Of a stretch of 64,000 nt of DNA, positions 13,201-38,492 are shown in pieces. The stretch lies in the IMG/VR virus record IMGVR_UViG_3300042197_000370; one strand, written 5' to 3'. Each line of letters opens with the position of its first letter. The stretch's first letter is position 1. This stretch comes from a virus. The position numbers and the translations under genes were made by a program. The notes under the pieces are model-generated. The model was given only the letters and a program-made list of their open reading frames with translations. It had not been told where the DNA came from and did no database searches.

Positions 13201-16200
13201 TTATAATCTTCCTACGGCTACTTCAATTACGCCGTCTATACCATCAAAATCTTGTAGTGCTTTTCCTATCACAGTACCAATATGAGGCGTTGTTGTAGGT
13301 CTAGCGTATCCACCGCCGCCACTTATTAGCATATCACCTTTTCTAATCTTGCCGCGAACCTTACATGGTACACGACCCTGTAGTGCTATCGCTACTGGGA
13401 ATTCACCAGGACATTTTGCATTCATAGCATATGCAGGATCGGTTGAAACAACTCCTGCTACACGATTTGTAGCATCAGTTGCTAATGTTACTTCTTCACG
13501 ACCGCCAAATTCTAGTACAGTGCCCGGACTATAATTCTCGTCAGCACTATAGTATTCTGCCAAGTCAGCATATGTTGCTTGCATTCTTGAACCACTAGTC
13601 AATGTCCAATTACCAGTTAAATAACCTAAAGTTGTATTTGCGCCAGTTGTTATATTTGTAACTGTGAATGCACTATTACCTGTTACAGAAGTTGCACCAC
13701 TAACTGTTAAACCAGTTAATGTTCCAACTGAAGTAATATTAGGTTGTGCCGCAGTTGTTACAGTGCCAGCAGTTGTTGCTGTTCCTGCTGTAGTTGCTGA
13801 AGGTACAGTACCTGTTACATTGGCTCCTGTCAATGCAGTCAATCCACTACCATTACCGGTAAATACGCCTGTGTTTGCTGTGATGTTTACACCAGTGATT
13901 GTACCATTTACACCTAAACTTGTTAGTGTGCCAACTGATGTAATGTTCGGTTGTGCTGCCGTTGTTACAGTACCGGCTGTTGTTGCACTTCCTGATACTG
14001 TGATAGTATATGTTCCGCTTAGTCTTGCGCTAGGTACAGTACCAGTTGATAAATTACTTGCATTTAAATTAGTTAAGTTTGCGCCACTGCCTGCAAACAA
14101 TGTAGAATTCAATGTACCAGTTGTTTTATCAAATGTGAATACTCCATTACCTGCTAATGTTCCTGCATCATTGAACTGAACATATGTATTAAATCCTGCA
14201 GGTGTTACATTACCTGCAACGTTTGCATAAGTGAACCCGCCACCAACTACTGCCGCCCAACCTGTTACTGCTGAACTAAATGTCAATGTTAATGCATTGG
14301 CATTTGTGTAATTGATAACTGGATAATCGTAACGACCAACAAAACTATTACCTGTATTGTCGATTGGTTCTACTGTTACATACTGATTGTTTAAATTGTG
14401 TACTACAGTCCAAACAGTGCTTCCACTAGATTGTGTATGTAAATAATAGCCGCCTGTTGGATCAGTCCAACTTAATGTGCCTGACCCATTAGTCTTTAAT
14501 ATTTGATTTGCACTACCGCCGGTAATTGTGACATTACCAATTGGTCCTAAATTACTTGTGCCAGAAACTCTTAGTGTACCAATGTTTGCATTGCCTGTAG
14601 TAATTAAATTACCGCCCGTGATTGTACCTGTTGCTGTTACTGTTGCGGCAGAGACCTCATTAGATGTTACAAGATTGCCACCAGTAACATTACCAGTTGC
14701 TACTATCAATCCAGCAGTGCCTAAGTTTCCAACGTTAGCATTACCTGTTACGCTTAATGTACCAGTCAATACACCTGATGTTGCACCAATGTTACCAACA
14801 TTAGCATTACCTGTAACACTAACGGTTCCTGTAAATACACCTGATGTTGCACCAATGTTACCAACATTAGCATTACCTGTTACGTTAGCAGTACCAGTAA
14901 TATTTGCACCCGTGTTAGTTACAACAAGTACGTTTGCAACACCGTTTGATGATATGTTTACATTTGAATTTGCAGTAACAATAACACTACTGTTACCATT
15001 TACAATCGCTGCACCGTTGGCTGCACTTGTGCCACCAACAGTAAATGAGCCACCGGATGCGTTAGTAATTACTACGCCGGCTGGACTTGATGTGATAGTT
15101 GCATTACCTAAATAAATTGTACTACCGGATAGATATAATGCATTCCATCTATTTGTTGTATTACCTAAATTGTATGTAACGTTAGCATTTGGATTTAAAT
15201 TACCTGCAACTGTTACTTGTGTACCATTACCAAAACTTGTTAAGTTCGGTTGTGCATTACTTGCAGTAGTTAATGTTCCTGTTACAAAATTTGCAGTTGC
15301 TAAGTTACCTAAGTTTGCATTTAATGATGTGATGTTTCCAGTGAACACACCTACTGTTGCACCGACGTTTCCAAAGTTAGCATTTGCAGTAACAGACAAG
15401 TTACCAGTAAGTGCTAAGTTACTTGATAGTACATTAAATGACAACGCACTGTTGACACCTAATGCTTGATTACTTGTAGAAGTGCTTGATACAAATACAG
15501 GATAGAATGTACCTGTTGTTTGCGCAGTTACTACGTTGAAATCACTCACGTTTGCATATGAAACGTTTAAGTTTGCTACACGGTCTGTACTTGATACTAC
15601 TAAAGGTGCTCCTGATCCACTAGTAATGTTTGAAAAAATTCTTGTCGCTGTTATTACACCTGTGGCGTTTAAATTACCTACGTTAGCATTGCCGTTAACT
15701 GTAAGTATCTTAGGATTTGCTCCAGTATTATTATTCCATGTAAAATCTGCGTCAGCATCTAATAAGTTGCTGTTATTGAATTGTACTGTAGAGTTTGAAC
15801 CGGCTGCGTTAGCGACACCGCTACCACCTACCGCACAAATAACTCTACCACCTGTAGCATACACATTACATGTACCACTAGCAGTAGTGAGTGTTAATTC
15901 AGTACCACCAGCAGTTAACGAAATTGTCATCTGCGTACCAGAAACAATATTCTTAACGTAGTATGTTTCACCAGCAATAATGCCACCAAACGTTGTTCCA
16001 ATAAATTTAATTGGATCGTTAGCAGTGAATGAACTAGTATCACCAACTGTTACATAATTGGTCGATGCAGTTGTATCGGTTACGCTAGTATATGCATATG
16101 CTGTGTAACCTGTACTATCTAATGCAGTTGTAAGGCTAGAGTCTGTAAATAACGCAAATGAATTAGAAGTTATAATATCAATATAGTAACTATTTCCATT

Positions 16201-21202: not shown

Positions 21203-22351
21203 TTAACGGCCGGCTAAATTTTGGCGACTAAAGCCCATACGATCTACAAATTTAAGACCCTGGGCAACGAATCCTTCTTGGGTTTCAGTACCGTCTTGTA
21301 AGTAACCCTTAACAGGGCTAGACTTTGCAGCCTGATCTAACTGCTTTACAACATTCATTTTGAGATTGTAAATAGCGATCCATATAGTAAATGCCCCTAG
21401 TAACCCTTCAGCATTCTCAGCAAAGTGCTTATCTATCTTTGCTCTCATGCTATCTGTCATAGGTCTTGACGCAACATAATCTTTAAAGCCATCAAGTAAA
21501 TTGCTTAGATCACCTGACACTATACGCTTATTAATATATGTAGTGAATAGTTGATTAAACGTATTACGTGCCTGAGGGGCAGTAGTCATCAACTGCTGTA
21601 CTGCTCCTCCGTATTGGTTGATTGCTTTTTTGACTTCGTTCACTAGACCTGCATCTAGTTTAAGTTTAGGAGTTATAGGCATCTTACTAGGAACTATAGC
21701 GATATTGCTATTATTCTGTAACTTGCCTATAGTTCCGTTCAACGGAGTCGCTTGATCGGTTGAGGCAGCGTCAGCGGGTATGAATTGGTGTACTGCAATA
21801 CCAGCAGTCTTACCCTTCATTAATTTGCCAACTTCACTATTAGGATCCACTGTGTATGTTATACCGTTAGGGTTAGCCCTAAAGGTATATACACCGTCTT
21901 TTTCTTCTAATGGTTGGCTAAACAATAAGTCGCCCCAATAGAATCCTTTACCTTTATCTGCCTTCTCAAGCCCAGGCCATATTTCAGCAATCAACTGGTG
22001 TAAACCTGTACGGTCTACTCCACGTGCCTGATCGTATTGAATAAACTGTTCGGGACTAAACACTTGTCTGCCCGTACCGTCTTTCTTGTTAAACATATGT
22101 TTGTCCATGATGGAAAACTTACCGTTTACCCCACGTCCAAATATCAATGCAGGATACCCGTCCCACTTAATAGTAACTGTATCAGGTGTCTTGACAGTTT
22201 TCTGTATTGCATCTAACGCACGATTTGCACCCTGTAAGTCACCTAAGAACACCAAATCTTCAGGATGGTCTAGGTGACCCTTATCTTCAGTAACGATTTC
22301 TAGGGCACTAATCTTACGTGCTAATGCTGATAGGCTTTCTGCTAAGTTCAT
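21203..22351 (-). CDS. Conserved T4-like hypothetical protein with KxDG motif (DUF6267-like)
   Basis: HLDHPEDLVF, TIKWDGYPALIFG, YWGDLLF, EGFV and KFVDRMGFS motifs. Confidence 0.6.
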   Translation of the reverse strand: MNLAESLSALARKISALEIVTEDKGHLDHPEDLVFLGDLQGANRALDAIQKTVKTPDTVTIKWDGYPALIFGRGVNGKFSIMDKHMFNKKDGTGRQVFSPEQFIQYDQARGVDRTGLHQLIAEIWPGLEKADKGKGFYWGDLLFSQPLEEKDGVYTFRANPNGITYTVDPNSEVGKLMKGKTAGIAVHQFIPADAASTDQATPLNGTIGKLQNNSNIAIVPSKMPITPKLKLDAGLVNEVKKAINQYGGAVQQLMTTAPQARNTFNQLFTTYINKRIVSGDLSNLLDGFKDYVASRPMTDSMRAKIDKHFAENAEGLLGAFTIWIAIYNLKMNVVKQLDQAAKSSPVKGYLQDGTETQEGFVAQGLKFVDRMGFSRQNLAGR

Positions 22352-23745
22352 CTGAATCTACGAATTTTAGTTTTTGATTCTGCTACTTTCTTTGCAGGTT
22401 CTGCTGTAGCAGGTCTATCAACGAATCCGGGCTTTTCTGCTGGCGCCGCACTAGGTGCTTTAGCATCAAGTCCTTGTGTAGGAGTACCTGTTGTCAATTC
22501 TTTCATTGTTTCAGCATAGAGTTTAGCATCGACACCCTTAAGTCTAGTCATTGTACTCTTCACCAACTCAGCCATTTGATGACTATTCATAGCAGTTTGG
22601 GCTGGTTGGGCAGCCGCTTGTGACTGTGCAGCCTGTGCTGGTTCTGCAGCCTTTTCGGCGCCTGCTGTAGAGGCTGGATCTGCACCTTTACCTACAATAT
22701 TTGCGGCGCCTGCAGGAACATTACCCTTAGACACTGCATAACTTACTTGTGCTAATTTTTCTAATGCTGCCTGACCTCTGTCTTTACCGTAAGTTGCTTG
22801 TACTGCATCAATACCCTTATCAATAACTGCTTGATTGACAGTATAGTTGACACCCTTCATATACTGTGGGTACCATTGATTTTTTAAGTATTGTGAAATA
22901 CTAATCTTACCAGTATCACCTGCTTCTAAAATGCTTTCGAAAATGTTATTAAGTTTTACATAACGTGATTCTACTATCATGTATTTCTTGCTAGTAGACT
23001 CTAACAACACTGATAATCCTAAATCAGTCCATGTCAAACCTGCACCTTCAATCAGCATATTCAAGTAATAAATCTTCCAACCTTCCTTCAATCCTGCTGG
23101 GTTCAAGTCAAGACGTTGACCTGCACGTAGTTTCTGAATTGCGGCAGTTGCAAAATTAGGATCAGCATTTTTCTTTAATACATATTCCGCAGTCTTTAAT
23201 GCGTTACCCCACTCAGGGTAATCTTTACGGTCTGCCATAAAGTTGACTAGTTCTTTAGTCAAAGCAATCTTTTGCGCCTTATCAGTTACCTGACTTAATT
23301 GCTGTGACACACCCTTAACATAGTTGTTTAAATTCTGTGTAGACTGTTGCTGTTGCTTATACTTTCCAGTAGCCATGTTTGTGCCTGTTTTAGGCAATCC
23401 GCCGGCTGCAGGAGTAGTTGTTGCAGTAGGAGTAGTTGGTGCTGTAGGTGCTGTTGCACCGGGTACAGTTGGTTCGGGCTTTACCCCTGCTGGGTTAACT
23501 GGAGTAGCAGTTTTAGGTTTAGCATTTCTTAATTTGGGGTCTACTAAACCACCCTCAATAGATGTTTCTAGTGAAGATATCGCATCACCTACGAAATCCT
23601 TAATGAACATATCCTGAGCCATTTGCTGTTGTACTGTTTTACCACCTGCTTGGCCGGTCATTTTCTTAAGAGCAGCGGAACCGTAGTCTCCGATTAAACT
23701 GCTTAGTCTAAGTTCTTCTAGTTTTTTAAATTCATCTAGTTTCAT
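22348..23745 (-). CDS. Hypothetical protein (possible internal head protein)
   Basis: ORF track; MKLDEFKKLEE start; low-complexity P/T/A linkers. Confidence 0.65.
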   Translation of the reverse strand: MKLDEFKKLEELRLSSLIGDYGSAALKKMTGQAGGKTVQQQMAQDMFIKDFVGDAISSLETSIEGGLVDPKLRNAKPKTATPVNPAGVKPEPTVPGATAPTAPTTPTATTTPAAGGLPKTGTNMATGKYKQQQQSTQNLNNYVKGVSQQLSQVTDKAQKIALTKELVNFMADRKDYPEWGNALKTAEYVLKKNADPNFATAAIQKLRAGQRLDLNPAGLKEGWKIYYLNMLIEGAGLTWTDLGLSVLLESTSKKYMIVESRYVKLNNIFESILEAGDTGKISISQYLKNQWYPQYMKGVNYTVNQAVIDKGIDAVQATYGKDRGQAALEKLAQVSYAVSKGNVPAGAANIVGKGADPASTAGAEKAAEPAQAAQSQAAAQPAQTAMNSHQMAELVKSTMTRLKGVDAKLYAETMKELTTGTPTQGLDAKAPSAAPAEKPGFVDRPATAEPAKKVAESKTKIRRFR

Positions 23746-24025: not shown

Positions 24026-25432
24026 CTATTTCTTTAGAGAATTTAATAATGACTTAAGTTTAGTACTTTGAATGTCGGCCACAACACGTTTTTCTTCTGG
24101 TTCTACGGTATTTTGAATAGTATCATTAACTGTACTTGTAGCCTTAATTTTATTCATTATATCGTTGGCCGACGGCTGTGCGTGCCGTTGTCTTTCATGA
24201 CCCTCAGGATCGGGGTCTGTAATACGTAGTGTTTCAGTGTTGAATTCCAATTCTATCTTCTGACCTACACCTGAACTACTACGTGTTTTCATTAATTGTA
24301 ATTGATACTGGCCACGCTCACGCATGCTACGGCTAGTAAAAATACCAAAAACATTGTCCGCAGTATTAATCTTACTAATACCACCTGAGATATGACTGTG
24401 ATCAAATTCGATTTCTTCAACTGCTGATCTGTTAAGTTGACTTGCTGTGACGAATAAGACATTTAATTCCTTTGCTAGATTTCTAAGTTCTTCAGATACA
24501 TACTTATCCTTTACGAACAAGTCGCTTGGACTTACTTTTGCGCTGACTGGCATGATCAAATCAAGATAATCGATACATAAGAAATCAATTTTCATTCCTG
24601 TTTGTATCTGCAATTCTTTACAGTATGCTCTAATATCATTAACTGTGCTTTGCGCAGGGAGATACTTAATACGTAACTTACCTGCTTTCTTAGCAACCAT
24701 TTTAACTTTCATTTCAACATTATCAATGTCTTTGAAAATTTCACGGCTACTAGTCTCAGTCATCATACTGTCAATACGCATACTACATAGACCTTCACTA
24801 AGTTCTAATGTGATGTATACACCACTTAGTCCTGCTTGTGCCCAATTGACTGCTAGATTCTGCATAAACAAACTTTTGCCTGATCCACTACCACCTGCAA
24901 AAATTTGTAGTTCTCCTCGATTGAAACCACCATATAGTTTTTGATCCATACTAGGCCAACCTGTACTGTTCTGTCCATTATTACTTTTTAGTGCCATAAG
25001 TCTTGCTCGTGGATCAGCAAAGTAATCAGTACCCATATCACGCTGTAGTGAAATCTGAACTGCGTCCTTAACCAGTTTCTCTACAGGGTCATACTCGCCC
25101 TTCTCAAGCAAATCGGCTGCTTTAAGAATAGCCCTCTCAAGTTCTTGTCGTTTAGTGAATGCTTCAAATTCTTCTAAGAACCATTCATAATGTCCATCAT
25201 CTAATTCTGCTATAGTTTCTATTTCAATACCTGTAGTAGCCTTAATCTGTACAGGCTCAGGCATCACATTATATTTCTTACTATGCTCTGCTATAAATTC
25301 TGCAACTGGACGCAATTTTCTATCAAAGTTCTGCGAGTTCATAATATTCATGACCCGAGTATATAATTCTGCGTTAGTTACCATCATGCGCAAAAACAAT
25401 GTTTGCACATCTACATTAAACTCTTTTATCAA
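24026..25432 (-). CDS. Replicative DNA helicase (T4 gp41/DnaB-like)
   Basis: Walker A FAGGSGSGKS, CIDYLDL, VTASQLNRS and QLMKTRSS motifs. Confidence 0.93.
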   Translation of the reverse strand: MIKEFNVDVQTLFLRMMVTNAELYTRVMNIMNSQNFDRKLRPVAEFIAEHSKKYNVMPEPVQIKATTGIEIETIAELDDGHYEWFLEEFEAFTKRQELERAILKAADLLEKGEYDPVEKLVKDAVQISLQRDMGTDYFADPRARLMALKSNNGQNSTGWPSMDQKLYGGFNRGELQIFAGGSGSGKSLFMQNLAVNWAQAGLSGVYITLELSEGLCSMRIDSMMTETSSREIFKDIDNVEMKVKMVAKKAGKLRIKYLPAQSTVNDIRAYCKELQIQTGMKIDFLCIDYLDLIMPVSAKVSPSDLFVKDKYVSEELRNLAKELNVLFVTASQLNRSAVEEIEFDHSHISGGISKINTADNVFGIFTSRSMRERGQYQLQLMKTRSSSGVGQKIELEFNTETLRITDPDPEGHERQRHAQPSANDIMNKIKATSTVNDTIQNTVEPEEKRVVADIQSTKLKSLLNSLKK

Positions 25433-26387
25433 GTTTCCTCCGTTGCATTTCTACTTTAATCTTACTATTTGTTGCGTTTTGTAATATACTTAGTAACGTA
25501 GGCAGTCGCCCGTATTTAACCACTGCATCGTTAACGTCTTTGCAATTATCCCAATTGGGTATACTAACATGAAAGCCCAATTCTAATGCTCTATCACATA
25601 CTGTTAATCCTGTTTTATCTTGGTCAGGTACAAATATAATTTTACGATTTAATTTTTGTAACACCTCAACCTGATCATCATTTATTGTATTGTGTGTTAA
25701 TGCGCAACAATTTAAACTTAGTGCGTCAAATATGCCTTCTACTAAGATACACACTTCCCACTCAGGTCTTTGTAAATCATAACCAAATATATAACCGGGC
25801 TGTTGCTCGTTAATGAATTTAGGCTTACGATCATCTAAGTATCTGCTAGTATGTCCTACAATTTTATTTTCAAATGTGAAGGGTATGATAATTCTATTTG
25901 CTTGACGACCTTCAGCATCAGGTGTTACTAAGAAAGGATATTCGTTGTGCTTGATACCTCTCTTATTCAAATACTCTACAAATACATTGTGAACAGGATT
26001 AAATGGATCGATGATTTCACCCTCAGGCAAATGCATCTCTTTAAATTTAACCTTAGACTTTTCTTTTTTAACTTTTACAAAGTCAAGCAAATCTTTATGT
26101 TGTAAACTTTCTAAGTTCCAACGATTAATTTGTTGCTCATCAATACCGCACCATTGTAAAAACTGTTTTGTGTTTCGTGTTATACTCTTGCCTAACATGA
26201 AGCCACATTTGAATCCACAGTTGAAACAATGAAAAGACCAATTTTCACCATCTTGCTTGATACCACCTCGTTGTCTTTTATCGGGTTTATGCCCACGATT
26301 GTGACAGCACGGCGCATTGAAACTATACCAACCACTTTGTGTATGTTTCTTTCTACCGGGGATAACTGTAAGGATATCAAGCATCAT
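25416..26387 (-). CDS. DNA primase (T4 gp61-like)
   Basis: Zn-binding CC-H...HCFNCG; TOPRIM LVEGIFDAL and PDQDKTG; TTGATT-N16-TATAAT upstream. Confidence 0.9.
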   Translation of the reverse strand: MMLDILTVIPGRKKHTQSGWYSFNAPCCHNRGHKPDKRQRGGIKQDGENWSFHCFNCGFKCGFMLGKSITRNTKQFLQWCGIDEQQINRWNLESLQHKDLLDFVKVKKEKSKVKFKEMHLPEGEIIDPFNPVHNVFVEYLNKRGIKHNEYPFLVTPDAEGRQANRIIIPFTFENKIVGHTSRYLDDRKPKFINEQQPGYIFGYDLQRPEWEVCILVEGIFDALSLNCCALTHNTINDDQVEVLQKLNRKIIFVPDQDKTGLTVCDRALELGFHVSIPNWDNCKDVNDAVVKYGRLPTLLSILQNATNSKIKVEMQRRKLDKRV

Positions 26388-27307: not shown

Positions 27308-27688
27308 ATGATTTCACACGATTTTTTCAAAAAGTTAAGCGAGAACCACCCCTTTATAACAGTCTGTTCCTATGCCAGTCAAGATTATGTAGGTATTATA
27401 CAGAATAGGGACGATACTTGTACATCATTATACGACTATGGCGCAATCGTTGATAATGACTTAAAGACTAGATTCCTAGAACTAGGCGATACTTGGTGGT
27501 GGGAAAGCAATAGACTAGTACCCATAAATTTATTCCTTAAGGAAGAATGGATGGTTTTTAAACCCTACCTAAGAACCTTCAATAATAAGAGTTTAGAGAT
27601 AATACATGGACCTGTGTGTAGTATGATGGAACTACATAAACGCAGGTCTAAACGTAGAAGCATAACGTTAGTAAAACGTATGCCTTAA
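27308..27688 (+). CDS. Conserved hypothetical protein
   Basis: ORF track; FLELGDTWWWESNRLVPINLFL motif. Confidence 0.7.
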   Translation: MISHDFFKKLSENHPFITVCSYASQDYVGIIQNRDDTCTSLYDYGAIVDNDLKTRFLELGDTWWWESNRLVPINLFLKEEWMVFKPYLRTFNNKSLEIIHGPVCSMMELHKRRSKRRSITLVKRMP

Positions 27689-28167
27689 CCCTTACGCTTG
27701 CGTCTTTCTTTCGCTAGTTGTAGTCCTAGTTTAGCAACTTTAGTATCAAAGCATATACCATTTAAATGGTCAAACTCATGTTGAAATACCCTCGAGGGTA
27801 AATCTCCTAATTCTTGTTCGACTACATTCCCTGACAATTGCTGATACTTGACCTTAACTGTCTCTGGTCTTTTAACTGTTAACCAAAGTTTAGGGAAACT
27901 CAAACAACCCTCTTGGGCACGATTCTCCCCACTTGATTCTAGTATCTCTGGATTGATACAGACAATTAATTTCTCTTGGTTGCCCATAAGAAATATACGT
28001 TTCTTTACTCCACATTGCGGTGCTGCCAATCCTATGCCACCGCTCTCAAACATTATCTTAGTCATAGCCTTGACTAACTCAGTGGGGTCTCCGTCTGTTT
28101 CAAAGTTCCATGGTTCTGAAACTTCTCTTAACTGCGGATCATCTTCTTTAAGTAATTTGATTTCCAT
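27685..28167 (-). CDS. def: Peptide deformylase
   Basis: GIGLAAPQ, EGCLS and QHEFDHLNG signature motifs. Confidence 0.95.
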   Translation of the reverse strand: MEIKLLKEDDPQLREVSEPWNFETDGDPTELVKAMTKIMFESGGIGLAAPQCGVKKRIFLMGNQEKLIVCINPEILESSGENRAQEGCLSFPKLWLTVKRPETVKVKYQQLSGNVVEQELGDLPSRVFQHEFDHLNGICFDTKVAKLGLQLAKERRKRKG

Positions 28168-28738
28168 GTTCCCTCAACAAATTCATATGTACTACAACTA
28201 ACTGTGCATAAGCAACAGCATGACTACGCTTAAAACTATAACCAGTGTGATCTTTGTCCCACACAGTTTGATTTATATCTTTATATGTTCTACCAATTAA
28301 ATGTCTCTTTGCAGGTCTAATGACTGCAAGAAACATTGCCAATCTAGGTATACTATTAATAGACTCAGGCATCTTTAACAATGTATCATATTGATTACCT
28401 AAGTGTATCAACTGTTCTACAATATTTCTATGATTCAACATAGTCCAGTCGGGTTCACGCATCAGTTCTATCAAATGCTCTTCACTACGAACCTGATTAT
28501 AAATGTGAACGTTTAGTAAGTCTAATTTAAAATATCCACGATCCTCAGCAACTTCATAATGTAGTGCTGACATATTATTAATAGGATCATATGGAATTTC
28601 TGTAACATAGATACCAGTGGGATGTTTGCGTATAGGGGTAATATTACGCATACTGGCAGGAATATGTTTTATCAATGATAAAACTTTATCTCTATCACCT
28701 ACGTCAATATCAATATCACTTTGAAATTTCATAACCAC
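28148..28738 (-). CDS. Miniature DNA polymerase III alpha (DnaE)-like protein
   Basis: SDIDID, KHPTGIYV, GYFKLDLLNV, LAVIRPA and GYSFKRSHAVAYA, collinear with DnaE palm/finger motifs. Confidence 0.75.
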   Translation of the reverse strand: MVMKFQSDIDIDVGDRDKVLSLIKHIPASMRNITPIRKHPTGIYVTEIPYDPINNMSALHYEVAEDRGYFKLDLLNVHIYNQVRSEEHLIELMREPDWTMLNHRNIVEQLIHLGNQYDTLLKMPESINSIPRLAMFLAVIRPAKRHLIGRTYKDINQTVWDKDHTGYSFKRSHAVAYAQLVVVHMNLLREHGNQIT

Positions 28739-28953
28739 GATAAACTAAACAATATTGCATCCTGTTCATTTTTAAATTCAAATCTATACTTGCCGGATAT
28801 TGTTCTACCGCCCCAAAAACAACACCATATACCTTCTCTGTTATCTATAGCACTCCAGCGTTCACCAAATTTTTCTTCACACCATTTTATCTGCTGATAA
28901 TGACCTGTGGTAGGTTTTGACGGACTTAATATAGTATACCAACCTTTCATCAA
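28729..28953 (-). CDS. Small Trp-motif paralog
   Basis: WCEEKFG...FKNEQDAILFSLSW. Confidence 0.7.
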   Translation of the reverse strand: MMKGWYTILSPSKPTTGHYQQIKWCEEKFGERWSAIDNREGIWCCFWGGRTISGKYRFEFKNEQDAILFSLSWL

Positions 28954-29495
28954 ACCAATCCAAGTTTTTTATATGCTTGTTGTACTACGATTGCTTGCCT
29001 TTCCGCATCTTCGACGGCTTTGTGACTTGTGACATGTCCTCCGTCTTTGAGTTTAACTCCCGCAACTTCGTATAAAGTCCTAGTATCTCTAATAGTGTAA
29101 AAAGGCCAAGGAATAGGATTAGGCTTATCATTGAGTACCTGTCTAAAGGCTGTCTCAGCAACAACCACATCAAATGAAGCACCATTGCTCCAAACAGCAC
29201 GGCGGTTCCAACAAAACTTATAAAGGGTCTCCATGCACTCTCTAAATGATGTGCGTCCCCTGTCTCCCAATGCTTCTTCCAGTGCCTCAGGGCTCTGCTC
29301 AGACCACCAGCGTAAAGTATCATCGTTAATCACCCTATTGTATGTTTCAGTTTGCTCTTCAATGGTAGGACGCAATTCTAACTTCTGTATTACTCCAGTA
29401 CCTTTAGGATCAAATCTTACTGCGCCTATAGTTAATATAACACAATACGGAGACGTATCTAATGTCTCCATGTCAATCATTATGTCATTCGCCAT
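28950..29495 (-). CDS. DEDD 3'-5' exonuclease (DnaQ-like fold)
   Basis: IMIDMETL, WSNGASFD, IRDTRT and HKAVEDA motifs. Confidence 0.85.
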   Translation of the reverse strand: MANDIMIDMETLDTSPYCVILTIGAVRFDPKGTGVIQKLELRPTIEEQTETYNRVINDDTLRWWSEQSPEALEEALGDRGRTSFRECMETLYKFCWNRRAVWSNGASFDVVVAETAFRQVLNDKPNPIPWPFYTIRDTRTLYEVAGVKLKDGGHVTSHKAVEDAERQAIVVQQAYKKLGLV

Positions 29496-29496
29496 A

Positions 29497-29751
29497 TCAG
29501 TTTTGCCACATTTCCCACATTGTAATTAATCTACTAGACCACAGTGTTATTTGAACGTGCTTTCTACCGCCCATAAAGTCCCATCCATCACCGCGATCAC
29601 CAAAGTTTCTACGACACCAACTAATAACTTCTTTAGGATCACCCTTTACAGTAAATGTTACACCGTTTGTATCACGTGGGTTTTTACGTATAACATCTAC
29701 ATATTCAATTACGGGATGAAAGTTACCTAAACTAGGAAAATTATTTGCCAT
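29497..29751 (-). CDS. Small Trp-motif paralog (divergent)
   Basis: WCRRNFG...WEMW; probable start at 29751. Confidence 0.65.
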   Translation of the reverse strand: MANNFPSLGNFHPVIEYVDVIRKNPRDTNGVTFTVKGDPKEVISWCRRNFGDRGDGWDFMGGRKHVQITLWSSRLITMWEMWQN

Positions 29752-31789
29752 TACTTGTCCATACATTATCTATTTTAGTTACTTCTTCAATTATACTTGA
29801 ATCTAAATAATTTAGCAAGAGTGCTGGGCGTGGCCGATCTAGTGGATTGGGCATACTGCTATGTAATAGCCTGCAATTATACATTAATACGCATCCTTTG
29901 GGTAAAGTAGGCTGTAACATATTCTTTAAGAACCATTCATTATAATGCCCACGGTAACACAAGTTGATATCATGGTCTATCTTTTGACTGTGTGGTGCAA
30001 TACCTGTGCTAGCACTATTTCTATCCATATCATGTAATGCTACAATAACTTGTACACCTAATAAGTTTCTATCGTAATTCCACTTTCTAAAACGATGCGG
30101 GGTGTCTACATGTGGGCTAAACCAAGTCGAGTGCGAATCTATTGTTACAATATCACTTGCATAAAATTTAGCAGTCGGCAAATATTGTCTAACATATGCA
30201 CCTAAAATTTTATCAACCTCTTGCACTTCAGGCCAATCCATAACTGTTTGACTCCACCAAACACTTATGTTAGGTAGATTTTTTATATCATTACGCTCTG
30301 CATACTTTTTATCTCTACTACTAGCACGTACAGGATAGCATGTAGATAATTTAGATACTACTTTGTCAATAAGATCATTAGGTATAATATTATCTGTAAT
30401 GACATAACCCGGACCGTCTACTAAATCATTGATTACATTTTCTTGTAATGAGCCCGGAACGTAATAGTCCCCCGGAATAATACCCGCCTCCCAAATCTTT
30501 TCTAGTTCATTATGTAACTCAGGAATATAATCCTTAATGTGTCTGTTTCTAAATTTATCTGAATTAGTTATAAAATGTTTCCCCTGTGATAGATATGTTG
30601 AATCAATCAATTGTGGTTCTTCTAACCAACGCATAACAATTTTAATAGATTCTATCAATCCATGATTGATAGTCTCATTAGGATGTTCAGACAAATAGTT
30701 GTCGATAAAGTTCAATAACTCTTGTCCCTTAACTAAGCCTTGTTTTCTATATTCGGGAGTTAACAAACTTACTAAGGCATACAAGGGATGTGACACACGA
30801 TTTACAAAACATCCATTGTCATGCGCTAATGTTCCATCTATTTTTTTATACTCTAATCCTAAGTGCAACCAAAATTCAAATAAATCCATACACTGTATTG
30901 CGTTAAACAAACTAACTGTACAACTTAATCCTATACTGAATGTAGTTTTACTTGGGTCGTCCATACTTTCTTTCACCATAGAAAGAAAAGTTCTTAGATT
31001 GGATTCAATTTTTGACCACTTAAAAGGATATCTAATATACTCATTAGTTTTTTGGTACCCATCGATAGATACTGAAACATGGACTCTACCAAATTGTTTC
31101 CACAACTCAACTAACTCATCAGTGATCCCAGTTAGATTAGTTACATAACTAAGTCTAATTTTTTTACTACGGCCCTTTTCTATTAAAAGTTTTAGAAACT
31201 CAATATGCTCTTCTGATATAGTAGGTTCACCGCCTATTAAACTAATAGCAGTTACATTAGGAAAATCTTCTACTAATTTTTTAGCAGTAGTATCATCGAT
31301 GCAAATACGATTAAATTTAAATTGTTGCTCGGGCTTAATAGCCCATATTTTATTCCACTCTTCAGTCCAAAAGTCACTTAAGTCTGAACTACATGTCATG
31401 CACTTACTATTGCATTTCGTACCAAATGTTAAATCTAAGTAACGTATATCCTTTGCGTCAACATGATCGACTACCGGAATAACATGCTCTTGCAATCCTT
31501 TATTCCATATGGTACGCATTGATCCAATACCATTTTCCTCTGCTTCCTTACAGTTACCGCATGCTTCAGGCCATTCACCGTTAATTAATTCTTGACGTAA
31601 TTCTTTTAAATTAGATGCATTAATTCTTATATGAGGGTCTGCACCTAATACACCGTGATCATAATGACCGTCTTTATACATCTTCCAATGATTGGTTCTA
31701 ATACCACAACAAGGTATATACTCACCGTATGAGTTAATAGATGCTGATCCAAATGCTAAGGAACAGTATATAGGTTTTTTTACTTCCAT
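29741..31789 (-). CDS. Radical SAM (Twitch/SPASM-associated) protein fused to a PhyH-like 2OG-Fe(II) dioxygenase
   Basis: N-terminal C...PCC...CGNC cluster; CNSKCMTC; GGEP and YVTN; C-terminal PHVD...LHSS facial-triad motif. Confidence 0.8.
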   Translation of the reverse strand: MEVKKPIYCSLAFGSASINSYGEYIPCCGIRTNHWKMYKDGHYDHGVLGADPHIRINASNLKELRQELINGEWPEACGNCKEAEENGIGSMRTIWNKGLQEHVIPVVDHVDAKDIRYLDLTFGTKCNSKCMTCSSDLSDFWTEEWNKIWAIKPEQQFKFNRICIDDTTAKKLVEDFPNVTAISLIGGEPTISEEHIEFLKLLIEKGRSKKIRLSYVTNLTGITDELVELWKQFGRVHVSVSIDGYQKTNEYIRYPFKWSKIESNLRTFLSMVKESMDDPSKTTFSIGLSCTVSLFNAIQCMDLFEFWLHLGLEYKKIDGTLAHDNGCFVNRVSHPLYALVSLLTPEYRKQGLVKGQELLNFIDNYLSEHPNETINHGLIESIKIVMRWLEEPQLIDSTYLSQGKHFITNSDKFRNRHIKDYIPELHNELEKIWEAGIIPGDYYVPGSLQENVINDLVDGPGYVITDNIIPNDLIDKVVSKLSTCYPVRASSRDKKYAERNDIKNLPNISVWWSQTVMDWPEVQEVDKILGAYVRQYLPTAKFYASDIVTIDSHSTWFSPHVDTPHRFRKWNYDRNLLGVQVIVALHDMDRNSASTGIAPHSQKIDHDINLCYRGHYNEWFLKNMLQPTLPKGCVLMYNCRLLHSSMPNPLDRPRPALLLNYLDSSIIEEVTKIDNVWTSNGK

Positions 31790-32163: not shown

Positions 32164-32375
32164 TTTAATTTAAGCCATATAGCATATTTTTCATCTACAA
32201 AGTTAAGTCGCACTTGTTTAGCAGTTAGCAAATTGTATTGATCATCATAAGTAGGTTGTTCATATGCAAATGTGTAGTCCGCATTTTTTACTAACTTCCA
32301 CTCATCAATAATCTTGAGTATATCATACATCTCATTGATATGTGATATCTCTATTACACATTCAGTCATTGCCAT
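32154..32375 (-). CDS. Small Trp-motif paralog
   Basis: FVDEKYAIWLKLKW C-terminus. Confidence 0.65.
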   Translation of the reverse strand: MAMTECVIEISHINEMYDILKIIDEWKLVKNADYTFAYEQPTYDDQYNLLTAKQVRLNFVDEKYAIWLKLKWE

Positions 32376-32599
32376 CTTAACTTAAACATGATACAATCAC
32401 GTTCATATCTGAATTTTACTTCAGCATACGATTCATACCAACGCCAACGTGCATGGCGATAAGGCATGTCAACGTTGTCACGTAGCCAGTCAAGAATATC
32501 AAAATATTTCTCATGGTCATCATTTATCAAATCTACAACTACTAGATGCCAACTTGAATTATCCCAATACTCAAAATTTAATCTTTCAGTATGCTCCAT
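32366..32599 (-). CDS. Small Trp-motif paralog
   Basis: WLRDNV...FRYERDCIMFKLRW. Confidence 0.7.
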   Translation of the reverse strand: MEHTERLNFEYWDNSSWHLVVVDLINDDHEKYFDILDWLRDNVDMPYRHARWRWYESYAEVKFRYERDCIMFKLRWQ

Positions 32600-32928
32600 A
32601 CTAATTGTTTATCCAAACACTCTGCTATTTTATCTGCTTCTTCTTTTGTTCTAGCGATCACACCTAATACAACATGACGCTTTTGTATTGCATCGGCTAA
32701 ATAACCTTGATAGTTCTGATAAAAATTAAGACTATCGATATACAATACATCCCAACCATCAAGACGTTGTATCATTAATCTAGCAATGTCTACATCACAT
32801 TTTTCAAACAGAAATCGTATTAACTTATCAAATCCATCACGTGTATGTATAGGTGTAAACTTATCAGTTGGCCATGTTACTGTCCAACCTTTAGGTGTTT
32901 CTTGTATGATGAATGGACTTACTGACAT
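32578..32928 (-). CDS. Hypothetical protein
   Basis: ORF track; overlaps both neighbours. Confidence 0.55.
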   Translation of the reverse strand: MSVSPFIIQETPKGWTVTWPTDKFTPIHTRDGFDKLIRFLFEKCDVDIARLMIQRLDGWDVLYIDSLNFYQNYQGYLADAIQKRHVVLGVIARTKEEADKIAECLDKQLVWSILKD

Positions 32929-33128
32929 GCTAAACTAAAGAATATCGCATCACGTTCTTCTTTAAAGATAAACTCCATGTAATCTTCATTAGGATGCGTA
33001 ATAAACTTGTCTCCCGGTAAACCAAATGTTTCTAGTGCATAGGCACATTTCTCGTCCCATCTGCTAATGGTATCACCATTCTTCCAATCTATTCTTACCG
33101 TATGTTTAAATTCAGTATCCCGTTTCAC
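32919..33128 (-). CDS. Small Trp-motif paralog
   Basis: ALETFG...FKEERDAIFFSL. Confidence 0.7.
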   Translation of the reverse strand: MKRDTEFKHTVRIDWKNGDTISRWDEKCAYALETFGLPGDKFITHPNEDYMEFIFKEERDAIFFSLACQ

Positions 33129-34899: not shown

Positions 34900-36354
34900 T
34901 TAGTAGTCAAGTTTTTCCAAACTAAATGGATAGTTTGCTTCCTTGTAATATGCTTTTCTTTGTGTTAAGTGTCGTTTGGCAAACTTGCAGTCACTAGTTA
35001 TATCCCAAATCTCTACATGGTCCTTATCTTCAGCCTTTCTAATGCCTCGTCCAATACTTTGTATAACGCGGACAAAGCTCTTTCCGGGCTCAATAAGAAC
35101 CAAATTAAAAATCCTAGGGATATTAATACCCACACTGGCCACACCATAAGTCGCCACAATAATCTTGTTAGCACTAGTCTTAACTTCATCATATTCCTCT
35201 TTGCGTTCTGTCAATTTTGTTTCACCTGATATGAATACACTATCAGGTAGTCTATCAATTAGTTCTTTACCTGCGTTTACACGGTCTACTAGTACTAATG
35301 TATTACCACTATCTTTAATCTTGTCAATCAACTGTGCAATTTTATCTAATCGTTTTTCATCTTCAAGCAAATGCTTAAGTTCACTTTGATAATTACTGAA
35401 CTCTGCGCCGTCTTTTAACTGTACAATGTTCACGTGACATTGCGCCAATACACCCTTATCCTGTAACTCACTTGCACTTAACTTATTAATAACAGGACCT
35501 AAACTTACAAGTAGTGCAGTCTTTTCAAACTCTGCCTTAGGTATCGTTCCAGTAAGTCCCCATCGAATAGGTACATGACTGAATACCCCTGTCAACAATG
35601 TCTTAAGTGCATCAGCCTTAGCCATATGGACCTCGTCAACAATCAAGCAAACTACGTTCTCAATAAATTCACCAATGGATACATCAGCATCACCTGACTT
35701 TGTATTCTTTAGCAAATTGTTAAGACTTTGCCATGTGCATATAGTGTGTGTCTTTCCAAATTCTTTGCGATCACCAAAGTACACACCTACATCTAAACCC
35801 ATATTGATATAGTCTGCTTCTGTTTGTGTTACTAAACTTTTATTAGGCACAATGACAATACTACGCCCATAATACTCAATGCTTTTTGATAGTGCCGCAG
35901 TCATAATAGTCTTACCTGCGCCTGTAGCAACTTCTTGTAACGATTGTGGATTGGCTAAAAAGTTGTTAACAATCTCTACTTGATAGTCACGTAACATGAT
36001 TGGCTTACCTGCCATTACATGATCCTTAGGCCAAGTTTTATCTGCAAATGAATCCTCGGACACCTGAGCGAAATTGAATGTTGTTTGGTACTCTCGCATA
36101 TCATGCAATGATATGTCATAATCGTATTGCTCTAATATGGGTACGATATCAGTAAGTAAATTAATATAACTGCTACCACCTAAACTAAAGAAACTTACCT
36201 TGCCGTTCCAACGACCTAACTTGACGCTAGGTAAATATCTTGCACCGGGCACATCATATTCAAATTTCTTCATGCATGCTCTACGTGCATCAAGTTCTAG
36301 ACCCTCAATTTTTACATTGACTTCATCTTTAATTATTATTTTTGCTTCTCTCAT
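34900..36354 (-). CDS. uvsW: SF2 DNA helicase (T4 UvsW-like)
   Basis: LRDYQ, ATGAGKT, VDEVH, GLTGT, GINIPR and QSIGRGIR motifs. Confidence 0.9.
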   Translation of the reverse strand: MREAKIIIKDEVNVKIEGLELDARRACMKKFEYDVPGARYLPSVKLGRWNGKVSFFSLGGSSYINLLTDIVPILEQYDYDISLHDMREYQTTFNFAQVSEDSFADKTWPKDHVMAGKPIMLRDYQVEIVNNFLANPQSLQEVATGAGKTIMTAALSKSIEYYGRSIVIVPNKSLVTQTEADYINMGLDVGVYFGDRKEFGKTHTICTWQSLNNLLKNTKSGDADVSIGEFIENVVCLIVDEVHMAKADALKTLLTGVFSHVPIRWGLTGTIPKAEFEKTALLVSLGPVINKLSASELQDKGVLAQCHVNIVQLKDGAEFSNYQSELKHLLEDEKRLDKIAQLIDKIKDSGNTLVLVDRVNAGKELIDRLPDSVFISGETKLTERKEEYDEVKTSANKIIVATYGVASVGINIPRIFNLVLIEPGKSFVRVIQSIGRGIRKAEDKDHVEIWDITSDCKFAKRHLTQRKAYYKEANYPFSLEKLDY

Positions 36355-37364
36355 TTTACGTTTACCGGCCTTGAAATTTGTAATTTAATATATTTGGATA
36401 GTCGTTTACCTTTGTGGTGAGGTAGGTAATCTGTGGTATCTGTTAATTTTAGCATCACGGGATTTATTGCATCATCGTCAGTGTAAAATTTAGGATTAGT
36501 ACTGACTGATATATTTAGCGACTCAATCATGCTTGTTATCTCTCTTCGGGTATTTGCACCGCTAAGTCCACGCCCAAAATATACCATGTCTACATCAAGT
36601 TCCTTTAACCATACTAGAACTGTGGATAGGTTATCCAAATCAATAACAGTATTGAATTCAGATGCAAATATCTTTTTAGGATCATCACATGTTATAGACT
36701 TATCAATCGTAATACCATATTGCGATAAGTTAAATAATGTTTTAGGATTGTCATCAAAGTTTAAATCCTTTATATGATCGTATAGATATTGATTGATGGC
36801 TCCAACATAATAATTACCATTGGATTTTAAATATGTGGGCTTCCACACATCTGCCTCATAAGGTACTACTTGATTTAGTAACTCTATTACCTCAATACTG
36901 TAAGTTGTTGATTTAAAATATTTAGGCAATATAGTATTAGCAATCTTTAATGCATATGTGCTAAGTGGTGCTATATATTTTTTGTCATTCCTATTCCATT
37001 CGAATGAATTGTTTTCCATACTACGGAAATCAGAAATGAAATGTTTATTGAATGGAACCTTAAGCACTAAATTATTGCCCAATAAGAACACTTGTGCTCC
37101 TGTAAATTCGGGTGTGCTTTCTACGACAGGAGTGGTCCATGGAAGAGATTTTAACTCTTCTTTATCGAACCCCACTTTGCTAAACTGTTTGGAATACTTA
37201 CTGATTAATTTTTCAAACAATGCTTTTTGGTTTGTTGTTATTCTATGAAACTTAGCAATCAAGTATTCCAAATTGTGTAGGAACTTTTGATCATAGGTGC
37301 TTAGTTTAATTTCATGGTTCAAAAAATAATGTAGTAGATGTTCTTTGGACGCTAATTTCAACAT
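36351..37364 (-). CDS. Hypothetical protein
   Basis: Probable start MLKLASKE at 37364, below a TTGCTT-N17-TATTAT promoter; the track start lies inside the terminator. Confidence 0.7.
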   Translation of the reverse strand: MLKLASKEHLLHYFLNHEIKLSTYDQKFLHNLEYLIAKFHRITTNQKALFEKLISKYSKQFSKVGFDKEELKSLPWTTPVVESTPEFTGAQVFLLGNNLVLKVPFNKHFISDFRSMENNSFEWNRNDKKYIAPLSTYALKIANTILPKYFKSTTYSIEVIELLNQVVPYEADVWKPTYLKSNGNYYVGAINQYLYDHIKDLNFDDNPKTLFNLSQYGITIDKSITCDDPKKIFASEFNTVIDLDNLSTVLVWLKELDVDMVYFGRGLSGANTRREITSMIESLNISVSTNPKFYTDDDAINPVMLKLTDTTDYLPHHKGKRLSKYIKLQISRPVNVK

Positions 37365-37410
37365 CCTATAATAATAACAATTATCAGTAAGAAAAGCAAG
37401 TATAAAGGCA

Positions 37411-37437
37411 AAAAAAGGGGACCGAAGTCCCCTTTTT
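37411..37437 (-). terminator. Rho-independent terminator with cUUCGg tetraloop
   Basis: Minus strand AAAAAGGGGAC-TTCG-GTCCCCTTTTTT. Confidence 0.9.
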
Positions 37438-37454
37438 GTTGATTGAATCAACTG

Positions 37455-38492
37455 TTAGCGTTGACGCATAACAGTATTCTCAGCAAGCATCTTCCAGTTA
37501 GATTCGGACACTTTGACAAGGTCCGCAATCTTGAGGGCCATACGCAATGACAACTCACGCAACTTTGCCTTCTTGTCCCACATGAAGTTCAATACATCAT
37601 TAGCCTGCTCTTCAGTGAAATCATAGTCCTTGAACAGACCACCTGTATCAGTACTGTCACGATGGACCTGCTTGATACGCAACATCTTGTCACGCTCACT
37701 ATCAACAGTAAGGTCCAAAAAGTGACAACGTGACTGCAACGCCTCAAGATGGTCTTGCATCTTCTTAGACTTGACGTTCTCAAACTTCAAGTTAGTAATA
37801 AAGATAGCACTACCCTTGAATTCGAAACTGTCAGGGATGCCTTCACGGCGAAGCAAACTAGAATCACTATTCCAGCAAATCTTGCGGCGCTTGCCACTGT
37901 CAAGTGCGGCCTTGAGAATGTTCAATGATAACTCATCACCAAAAACGCTGTCGCAGTCATCGAACACTAGCACGTTCTTAGCATCACTATACTTGTACAA
38001 TTGAGCATAGAGGCCCAGTGCAGTCATAGCACCCTTGACAATTTCATAGCGAATACGCTTGCCAGCAATCTTGTCAAACATCACTGCCTTTTCTAATTGC
38101 TGTTCGACACCAAATGACTTGCCGACACCCGGGGGACCTGACACAATCATTGCGCGGATATCACCGTTGATACATGCGCGGCTCATTTCATCAAGAATCG
38201 CAAAACGTGTGCCAATGCGATCCATAGCCTGCTCATCAGTTTCCTGTACTGCCGGCGCTTTCTTAAATTCTACTGTCTGTGACAAAACGGGTTCCCCTTC
38301 TTTAAATTCAATATCGTTAATACTATCCACCTTGACCTTCACCACATCAATAGCGATGGGAAATTGGCCCTCGTTTTTAACTGTAACATAGTTACCTTTT
38401 TTACCTGTCTGAAAACCCTTAACAAGAGTGAAAGACTGGTTCACAACTGGCTTGTTGCGATACTCACCAAATTTAACAAGAATCGTTGACAT
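37455..38492 (-). CDS. AAA+ ATPase of unknown function
   Basis: Walker A SGPPGVGKS, Walker B VLVFDDCD, FITN sensor and ALQSRC arginine finger; probable start MSTILV at 38492. Confidence 0.85.
   Translation of the reverse strand: MSTILVKFGEYRNKPVVNQSFTLVKGFQTGKKGNYVTVKNEGQFPIAIDVVKVKVDSINDIEFKEGEPVLSQTVEFKKAPAVQETDEQAMDRIGTRFAILDEMSRACINGDIRAMIVSGPPGVGKSFGVEQQLEKAVMFDKIAGKRIRYEIVKGAMTALGLYAQLYKYSDAKNVLVFDDCDSVFGDELSLNILKAALDSGKRRKICWNSDSSLLRREGIPDSFEFKGSAIFITNLKFENVKSKKMQDHLEALQSRCHFLDLTVDSERDKMLRIKQVHRDSTDTGGLFKDYDFTEEQANDVLNFMWDKKAKLRELSLRMALKIADLVKVSESNWKMLAENTVMRQR

Follow-up and report, generated by a model that had tools for sequence, protein, structure and literature searches.

The window analysed here is a 64,000-nucleotide stretch of DNA from an uncultured giant phage (IMG/VR record IMGVR_UViG_3300042197_000370). 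At 28148-28738, its minus strand carries an open reading frame (ORF) of 196 amino acids, counted from a GTG at 28738. An earlier note on this DNA described the ORF as a self-contained, miniature C-family polymerase (DnaE-like, or DNA polymerase III (Pol III) alpha-like). We find that it encodes a real and conserved protein that is derived from DnaE. We propose that it is very probably the C-terminal unit (C-unit) of the minimal, split form of Pol III alpha that is encoded by group 2.2 jumbo phages (Rak2-, 121Q-, PA5oct- and Atu_ph07-like), and that it forms a heterodimer with a separately encoded N-terminal unit (N-unit). This split polymerase was described from sequence by Iyer, Anantharaman, Krishnan, Burroughs and Aravind (2021, Viruses 13:63; PMC7824862). 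The gene in the window is a further member of a known, computationally described family, and the finding itself is not new.

The gene and its product

28148-28732, minus strand: probable C-terminal unit of a split minimal Pol III alpha, with the metal-binding residues and trimmed fingers; 194 amino acids plus stop (phrog_11778, fold, conservation, and the ratio of nonsynonymous to synonymous substitution rates, dN/dS)

The product is most likely 194 amino acids long, starting from an ATG at 28732, because this ATG forms an ATGA overlap with the stop codon of the upstream gene (74 amino acids), because the same methionine is the first residue in nearly all homologues, and because gene callers give the 194-residue form on identical public contigs. 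The exact 194-residue protein is found on three contigs, none of which is longer than 10.5 kb, so that they do not extend as far as the N-unit. The 196-residue form had no exact match. So the coordinates in the earlier note hold, but the strand is minus and the product is probably 194 amino acids rather than 196. The protein begins with MKFQSDIDID, which leaves five residues ahead of the DxDxD motif. At the other end, the closest relatives (95-98% identical; loci L007-L010) stop three codons earlier, with ...HGN followed by a stop where the window has ...HGNQIT (28148-28160, minus strand). Because of this difference, we consider that the extreme C-terminus is variable and probably dispensable.

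The C-unit family is large. At E ≤ 1e-5, its homologues form at least 8000 clusters (at 90% identity), and the best 120 homologues listed have 187-216 amino acids. The C-unit is 38-49% identical to proteins of 121Q, Atu_ph07 and PA5oct, and the best match to the window's copy from a cultured phage is at 49% identity, from the PA5oct-like phages. We looked for longer or fused proteins of 353-2000 amino acids and found none (weak evidence).

Family and fold

The C-unit matches phrog_11778 ("DNA polymerase") with E = 3.8e-56, over residues 3-191 of 196. Full-length DnaE families in PHROG match it weakly, at its C-terminal part. Pfam gave no match to this ORF even at E = 10, including to DNA_pol3_alpha (PF07733), and comparing the C-unit to PDB sequences, with phmmer and with a profile of the family, gave nothing useful.

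We predicted the structure with AlphaFold2 from an alignment of 50 non-redundant homologues on IMG/VR contigs (98-53% identical). The model has a mean predicted local distance difference test (pLDDT) of 91 and a predicted template modelling score (pTM) of 0.80. We compared it exhaustively to 48,161 PDB representatives with VIA-align. The seven highest matches are all C-family polymerases (PolC or DnaE), with Z from 8.8 down to 5.3, while the best unrelated chain has Z = 4.4. The best match is PolC (3f2b; Z = 8.8, with 187 residues aligned at a root-mean-square deviation of 3.6), followed by Mycobacterium tuberculosis DnaE1 (5lew; Z = 8.4) and the Taq enzyme (2hpi; Z = 8.2). For the E. coli enzyme (5m1s; Z = 7.2), residues 1-192 of the model align to residues 398-781. 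Foldseek also puts DnaE first, weakly (E = 7e-3). Thus, a confident model has C-family polymerases as its only clear matches, and the C-family origin that the earlier note had suggested is supported by phrog_11778, by the fold and by collinear motifs.

Motifs and compaction relative to E. coli DnaE

The five motifs that had been picked out of the ORF are all in the translation and in the same order: SDIDID, RKHPTGIYV, GYFKLDLLNV, LAMFLAVIRPA and GYSFKRSHAVAYA. Their E. coli counterparts, as listed in the note, are all present in the K-12 DnaE sequence that we fetched (1160 amino acids): PDFDVD at 400-405, KHAGG at 510-514, KFDFLGL at 553-559, ALFRPGP at 636-642 and GYGFNKSHS at 753-761. A profile alignment places GYxKLDLL onto GLVKFDFL (which includes D555) and GYxFKKSH onto GYGFNKSH (which includes K758).

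Aligning SDIDID with PDFDVD makes D8, D10 and D12 (numbered as in the 196-residue form) equivalent to D401, D403 and D405 of E. coli. Only sequence alignment underlies this register; D8, D10 and D12 are all invariant. In this register the equivalents of D401 and D403 are D8 and D10, not D10 and D12 as in the earlier note. The distance from D10 to D73 is 63 amino acids rather than 61, as compared to 152 in E. coli DnaE, so the claim that this region is strongly shortened stands.

Other distances have also shrunk. From DxDxD to KHxxG there are just 26 amino acids in the C-unit and about 105 in E. coli, which implies that the C-unit has no thumb. From the RP motif to KSH there are 29 amino acids, as compared to 119, and the chain ends about 26 amino acids past KSH. 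Overall, the 194 residues of the C-unit cover a 384-residue segment of DnaE (398-781), from which the thumb has been deleted along with roughly half of the fingers. We found no PHP, thumb, clamp-binding or OB domain in the C-unit; the motif spacing and the structural span both bear out their absence, and that of much of the fingers, as originally described.

The protein is under strong purifying selection, as judged from the alignment of 50 sequences (down to 53% identity) and from dN/dS. In the alignment, D6, D8, D10, H37, K69, D71, R139, K142, K168 and H171 (numbered as in the 194-residue form) are invariant. The median dN/dS (by the Nei-Gojobori method) is 0.086 across 88 pairs, and it is 0.012-0.105 between the window's C-unit and its close relatives. 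Neither of the signs of decay that had been raised, neutral evolution or lost aspartates, is seen.

A separate gene for the N-terminal unit

The C-unit lacks the GRGS half of the palm, which binds the triphosphate, because its ORF begins just five residues before DxDxD. In relatives, this half is encoded by a separate gene of about 168 codons. So the claim that the ORF retains the catalytic motifs on its own does not hold. The compaction that had been proposed is real, but the words "rather than a simple split" are wrong: the gene is compacted and it is also split.

One N-unit is in Sinorhizobium phage Phosso, whose 177-residue ORF matches PF07733 above the curated cut-off (E = 7.9e-13). This protein ends with ...GVGRGSSVASY...LDFDEFLN, and its gene is 224 kb from the C-unit of Phosso. 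Among five long IMG/VR contigs that carry a homologue of the C-unit, three have a 168-residue ORF for the N-unit, and these too match PF07733 above that cut-off. Altogether, we found the N-unit in contigs G006, G005, G003, G010 and G011 and in Phosso (the translated ORFs have 168-177 amino acids). Each of these also has a C-unit homologue, which in G011 is seen by weak profile matches only. We compared 76 complete ORFs for the N-unit. They have 166-177 amino acids, and GVGRGSS is kept in nearly all of them. In the third of these ORFs whose C-termini we inspected, the protein ends with ...EFL[KR] or a close variant (...EFFK or ...DFLR), followed by the stop codon.

Several observations link the two units. 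First, they abut in DnaE numbering: a profile of the N-unit matches E. coli DnaE at 323-392 (and Taq DnaE at 381-454, with E = 1e-3), and the C-unit begins at 398. Second, they have a similar distribution: among records for cultured phages, 92 have the N-unit and 96 have the C-unit, and the hosts are distributed alike. The distance between the two genes is 31-44 kb in 121Q and PA5oct, and it is 182-224 kb in Atu_ph07 and Phosso. Third, these relatives seem to have no more of DnaE than this. In G010 and G011, which are 92-100% complete, a profile for full-length DnaE (phrog_405) finds the two mini-units only. The matched positions of the profile are 325-429, 580-623 and 776-809, and it finds no PHP or C-terminal DnaE domains in either genome. 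The earlier note had held that complementary DnaE fragments elsewhere would refute its reading and indicate an ordinary split polymerase. Relatives do have such a fragment, and this counts against that reading, yet a pair of about 362 amino acids is not an ordinary split DnaE.

The N-unit is not in the window. A motif search and tblastn with the Phosso N-unit gave chance-level matches only across the 64 kb, and a six-frame translation has no [GPA][RK]GS motif within an open frame. Instead, we predict from synteny that the N-unit of this phage lies 17-20 kb to the left of the window. The window is collinear with G006 (116 in the window corresponds to 34429, and 28154 to 61367), and the N-unit of G006, at 14135-14377, would be about 20 kb past the window's left edge. 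G010 (360,683 bp, with terminal repeats, and 100% complete according to CheckV) has its C-unit at 36,994-37,563 and its N-unit at about 352.5 kb, which is about 17 kb left of the equivalent of the window's start. The nearest record, G001, is a 12-kb fragment and has neither unit. We also considered contig G007, whose sample also yielded a C-unit with 97% identity, as the missing neighbouring contig, but it shares no DNA with the window's left end.

We also predicted the complex of the N-unit and C-unit of G006, each given as an alignment. The pair scored 0.89, while the best of three controls scored 0.00. For comparison, 58 of 80 solved complexes attain this mark, as do 2 of 110 mismatched pairs. 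Contacts agreed at 96% or more between runs, and the partner's pLDDT was at least 90. In the predicted complex, the region of the GRGS loop (N-unit 129-142) contacts both the DxDxD strand (C-unit 3-13) and the KSH helix (C-unit 168-181). The two units are thus predicted to form a heterodimer, and the predicted contacts are the arrangement expected of a composite DnaE-type active site.

Proposed role and alternatives

We propose that the C-unit would supply the metal-binding carboxylates (from the DIDID strand and from the aspartate of KLDLL, which is equivalent to D555 of DnaE), a lysine matching K553, and trimmed fingers with the RP and FKxSH motifs (including the equivalents of K758 and H760). 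The N-unit, whose gene would be roughly 47 kb away and whose sequence ends where the C-unit begins, would supply the GRGS half of the palm. The two chains would join non-covalently to form one active site with the Pol-beta fold, in about 362 amino acids. Most likely, this composite site would add deoxynucleoside monophosphates to the end of a primer, as directed by a template. Without thumb, clamp-binding and OB domains, the enzyme would probably be distributive, would act over short stretches, and would be auxiliary to a replicase of family B (PolB). Candidate tasks are gap filling, primer hand-off and repair. We view templated DNA synthesis and a role of this kind as about an even call. We are more tentative still, putting it a little short of even, about the strongest form of this idea: that the pair is an active, template-directed polymerase that works beside PolB with neither thumb nor clamp and has a dedicated job. 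No other C-family polymerase would come near it in smallness, and its active site would be made of two chains.

Several points weigh against our proposal. The sequence link from the C-unit itself to DnaE is weak, as it comes from the fold, short motif alignments and PHROG matches. The N-unit is absent from the window, so its presence in this genome is a prediction from synteny. The score of the predicted complex may reflect likeness to single-chain DnaE structures rather than binding, because the units are two halves of a fold that has been solved many times as one chain. How the primer-template would be held without a thumb, HhH/clamp-binding or OB domain is not evident. And the N-unit has a nearly invariant glutamate where an arginine (R390) is expected, if ...EFL is aligned by eye to FERFL of E. 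coli.

The last two points bear on the best-surviving alternative, which we think is unlikely. The heterodimer might form and yet not be a templated DNA polymerase but a nucleotidyltransferase with the Pol-beta fold that has another substrate or product. For example, it might add tails to 3' ends without a template, modify ends, or make a nucleotide signal in the conflict between phage and host. This would fit with the loss of the thumb, of about half the fingers region, and of every C-terminal domain that binds DNA or the clamp, as well as with the glutamate in place of R390. Also, the relatives already have a full PolB. However, the equivalents of K758, H760 and K553, the RP motif and the GRGS loop are kept invariant, which fits DnaE-like binding of deoxynucleoside triphosphates, and the genes are in a replication setting, with the C-unit beside primase and helicase genes and the N-unit near a clamp loader.

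A second alternative is the original one, that the ORF of 196 amino acids is a self-sufficient mini-polymerase that arose by internal compaction alone, with no other piece of DnaE. The ORF is intact and conserved, it has all three carboxylates, and the 64-kb window has no other piece of DnaE. Nevertheless, we consider this very improbable: a protein that starts five residues before DxDxD is missing the GRGS half, the N-unit co-occurs with the C-unit both in cultured phages (92 and 96 records) and in collinear relatives, the units abut (392 and 398 in DnaE numbering), and a large predicted interface sets the GRGS loop at the active site.

Finally, although the halves are encoded far apart and split-intein DnaE genes are known from cyanobacteria, we rejected the ideas that the pieces are decaying remnants of DnaE or that a split intein ligates them into one protein; both have next to no chance of being right. 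Against decay are the dN/dS of 0.086, the invariance of the catalytic residues and a split point that does not vary within the family. Against an intein, the N-unit's ...EFL[KR] plus stop and the C-unit's five residues before DxDxD leave no room for intein halves, and there is no intein sequence. The search for fused forms, which is weak evidence, turned up none.

Genomic context

The C-unit gene lies in a block whose order is common to the window, Phosso, Paride and 121Q: a helicase, several small genes, the C-unit, a small ORF on the opposite strand, a structural protein, a primase and a DnaB-like helicase. Besides the C-unit, the assigned or conserved features of this region are:

34900-36354, minus strand: UvsW-like helicase, which bounds the conserved block on its upstream side (ResIII, Helicase_C and UvsW_N; phrog_16)
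28950-29495, minus strand: Rv2179c-like DEDD 3'-5' exonuclease, two genes upstream of the C-unit (PF16473, E = 1.4e-31)
27308-27688, plus strand: conserved convergent neighbour of 126 amino acids, with no assigned function (phrog_11637, E = 8.6e-32)
25416-26387, minus strand: Toprim DNA primase, in a position like that of T4 gp61 (Pfam Toprim_2; synteny with Phosso, Paride and 121Q)
24026-25432, minus strand: DnaB-like replicative helicase, in a position like that of T4 gp41 (PF03796, DnaB_C, E = 5.8e-22; synteny)

The helicase upstream of the C-unit is UvsW-like in 121Q as well, and it is annotated merely as a DNA helicase in Paride and Phosso. With the DnaB-like helicase, the primase and the UvsW-like helicase all in the window, the T4-like replication setting that had been suggested is confirmed. 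The earlier note had also asked whether a gp43-type polymerase or other pieces of DnaE are present. Family B polymerases of 904-1013 amino acids are found in the relatives G002, G003, G005, G010, G011 and Phosso, while the window itself holds none. In G010 and G011, the only other DnaE piece found is the N-unit. The N-unit is near a clamp-loader gene in 121Q, and PAC2 has an AAA-domain gene at the same position.

We considered the exonuclease as a fixed proofreading partner of the C-unit. It is upstream of the C-unit in 40 of the 68 loci with enough flanking sequence, all of them with C-units at least 62% identical, and in many relatives it directly adjoins the C-unit gene (with a gap of 3-30 nucleotides). 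But it was not found in more distant loci, in the loci of Phosso, Paride and 121Q, or in the 20 kb of G010 that we examined. The exonuclease is a lineage-specific neighbour and not a fixed partner.

The convergent neighbour of 126 amino acids is more constant. It has a tblastn match in 74 of 80 related loci, which is the most of any neighbour, and Phosso, Paride and 121Q have an opposite-strand ORF of similar size at the same place. Its AlphaFold2 model is confident (pLDDT 86) and has a small beta-barrel with helices. We looked for a thumb-like or DNA-binding fold by comparing the model to the PDB, and no match was above Z = 4.5, which is the score of the best one.

In the window, a peptide deformylase gene (PF01327, E = 7.5e-41; 27685-28167, minus strand) lies between the C-unit and this neighbour, and overlaps the 3' end of the C-unit gene by 20 nucleotides. 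Since only 24 of the 80 related loci have it, this seems to be an auxiliary metabolic gene that was inserted in a particular lineage. Where there is no insertion, the 3' end of the convergent neighbour overlaps that of the C-unit gene by 10-23 nucleotides.

We also noticed four small paralogous ORFs of 69-89 amino acids, all on the minus strand (28729-28953, 29497-29766, 32366-32599 and 32919-33128). Their pairwise similarity is weak (E = 1e-4 to 1e-2), with a W..xFG centre and a C-terminus of the F.L.W type. They alternate with other genes, namely those for the mini-Pol III unit, the exonuclease and a radical SAM protein. The latter is an ORF of 682 amino acids (29741-31789, minus strand), with an N-terminal radical SAM domain (PF04055) and a C-terminal region like the PhyH-type Fe(II)/2-oxoglutarate dioxygenases (PF05721, just below Pfam's cut-off). 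Downstream of the DnaB-like helicase, at 21203-22351 and 22348-23745 (both on the minus strand), are a DUF6267 protein (382 amino acids, E = 3.8e-36) and an ORF of 465 amino acids with no match in Pfam or PHROG.

Significance

The family has its own PHROG, and several GenBank records for phages annotate the gene as "DNA polymerase III alpha". In the literature, we found no biochemical or genetic work on the split mini-Pol III beyond the 2021 sequence paper, and a 2026 review of jumbo phages is silent on it. A protein with at least 8000 clusters that is so strongly maintained by selection matters as a putative enzyme. If the pair is active, it would show how small the catalytic core of the replicative polymerases of bacteria can be, and it would raise the question of why giant phages with a T4-like replisome keep a second, tiny polymerase beside PolB. 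If it is indeed a polymerase of about 362 amino acids, it could serve as a minimal model for the catalytic core of Pol III and may be near the ancestral form of that core.

Comparison with known systems

The window's gene has no essential difference from the system of Iyer et al. (PMC7824862), in which the split enzyme is found together with a polymerase of family B. It belongs to the same family as their C-terminal unit (which binds Mg2+ and the template), has the same size, and starts just before DxDxD. The distant gene for the N-terminal partner is the same (as seen here in relatives), as is the company of a T4-like replisome and a PolB, and the gene neighbourhood is shared with 121Q, Phosso and Paride, the last of which is PA5oct-like. 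The window's lineage, from an uncultured phage, differs in that a deformylase is inserted downstream and in that the DEDD exonuclease and a small paralogue are upstream.

With the bacterial DnaE and PolC enzymes (2hnh, 5m1s, 2hpi, 3f2b and 5lew), the C-unit has in common the Pol-beta-type palm and its three carboxylates (D401, D403 and D555). Equivalents of K553, K758 and H760 and the RP motif are present and collinear, and the fold matches residues 398-781 of the E. coli enzyme. But the C-unit is about one sixth of the size, and it is missing the PHP domain, the thumb and the distal fingers as well as the clamp-binding and OB domains. Furthermore, the palm is divided between two polypeptides, of which only the N-unit matches PF07733, and the mini-Pol III is not the main replicase, as relatives have PolB.

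In cyanobacteria, DnaE is also encoded in two pieces, DnaE-n and DnaE-c, which are full-sized halves that a split intein joins into a normal DnaE. So there too, a C-family polymerase is made from two distant genes. The phage pieces, in contrast, are miniaturised and have no intein fragments. The cyanobacterial protein is split at a different site; the split in the phage proteins lies inside the palm, between FERFL and DxD.

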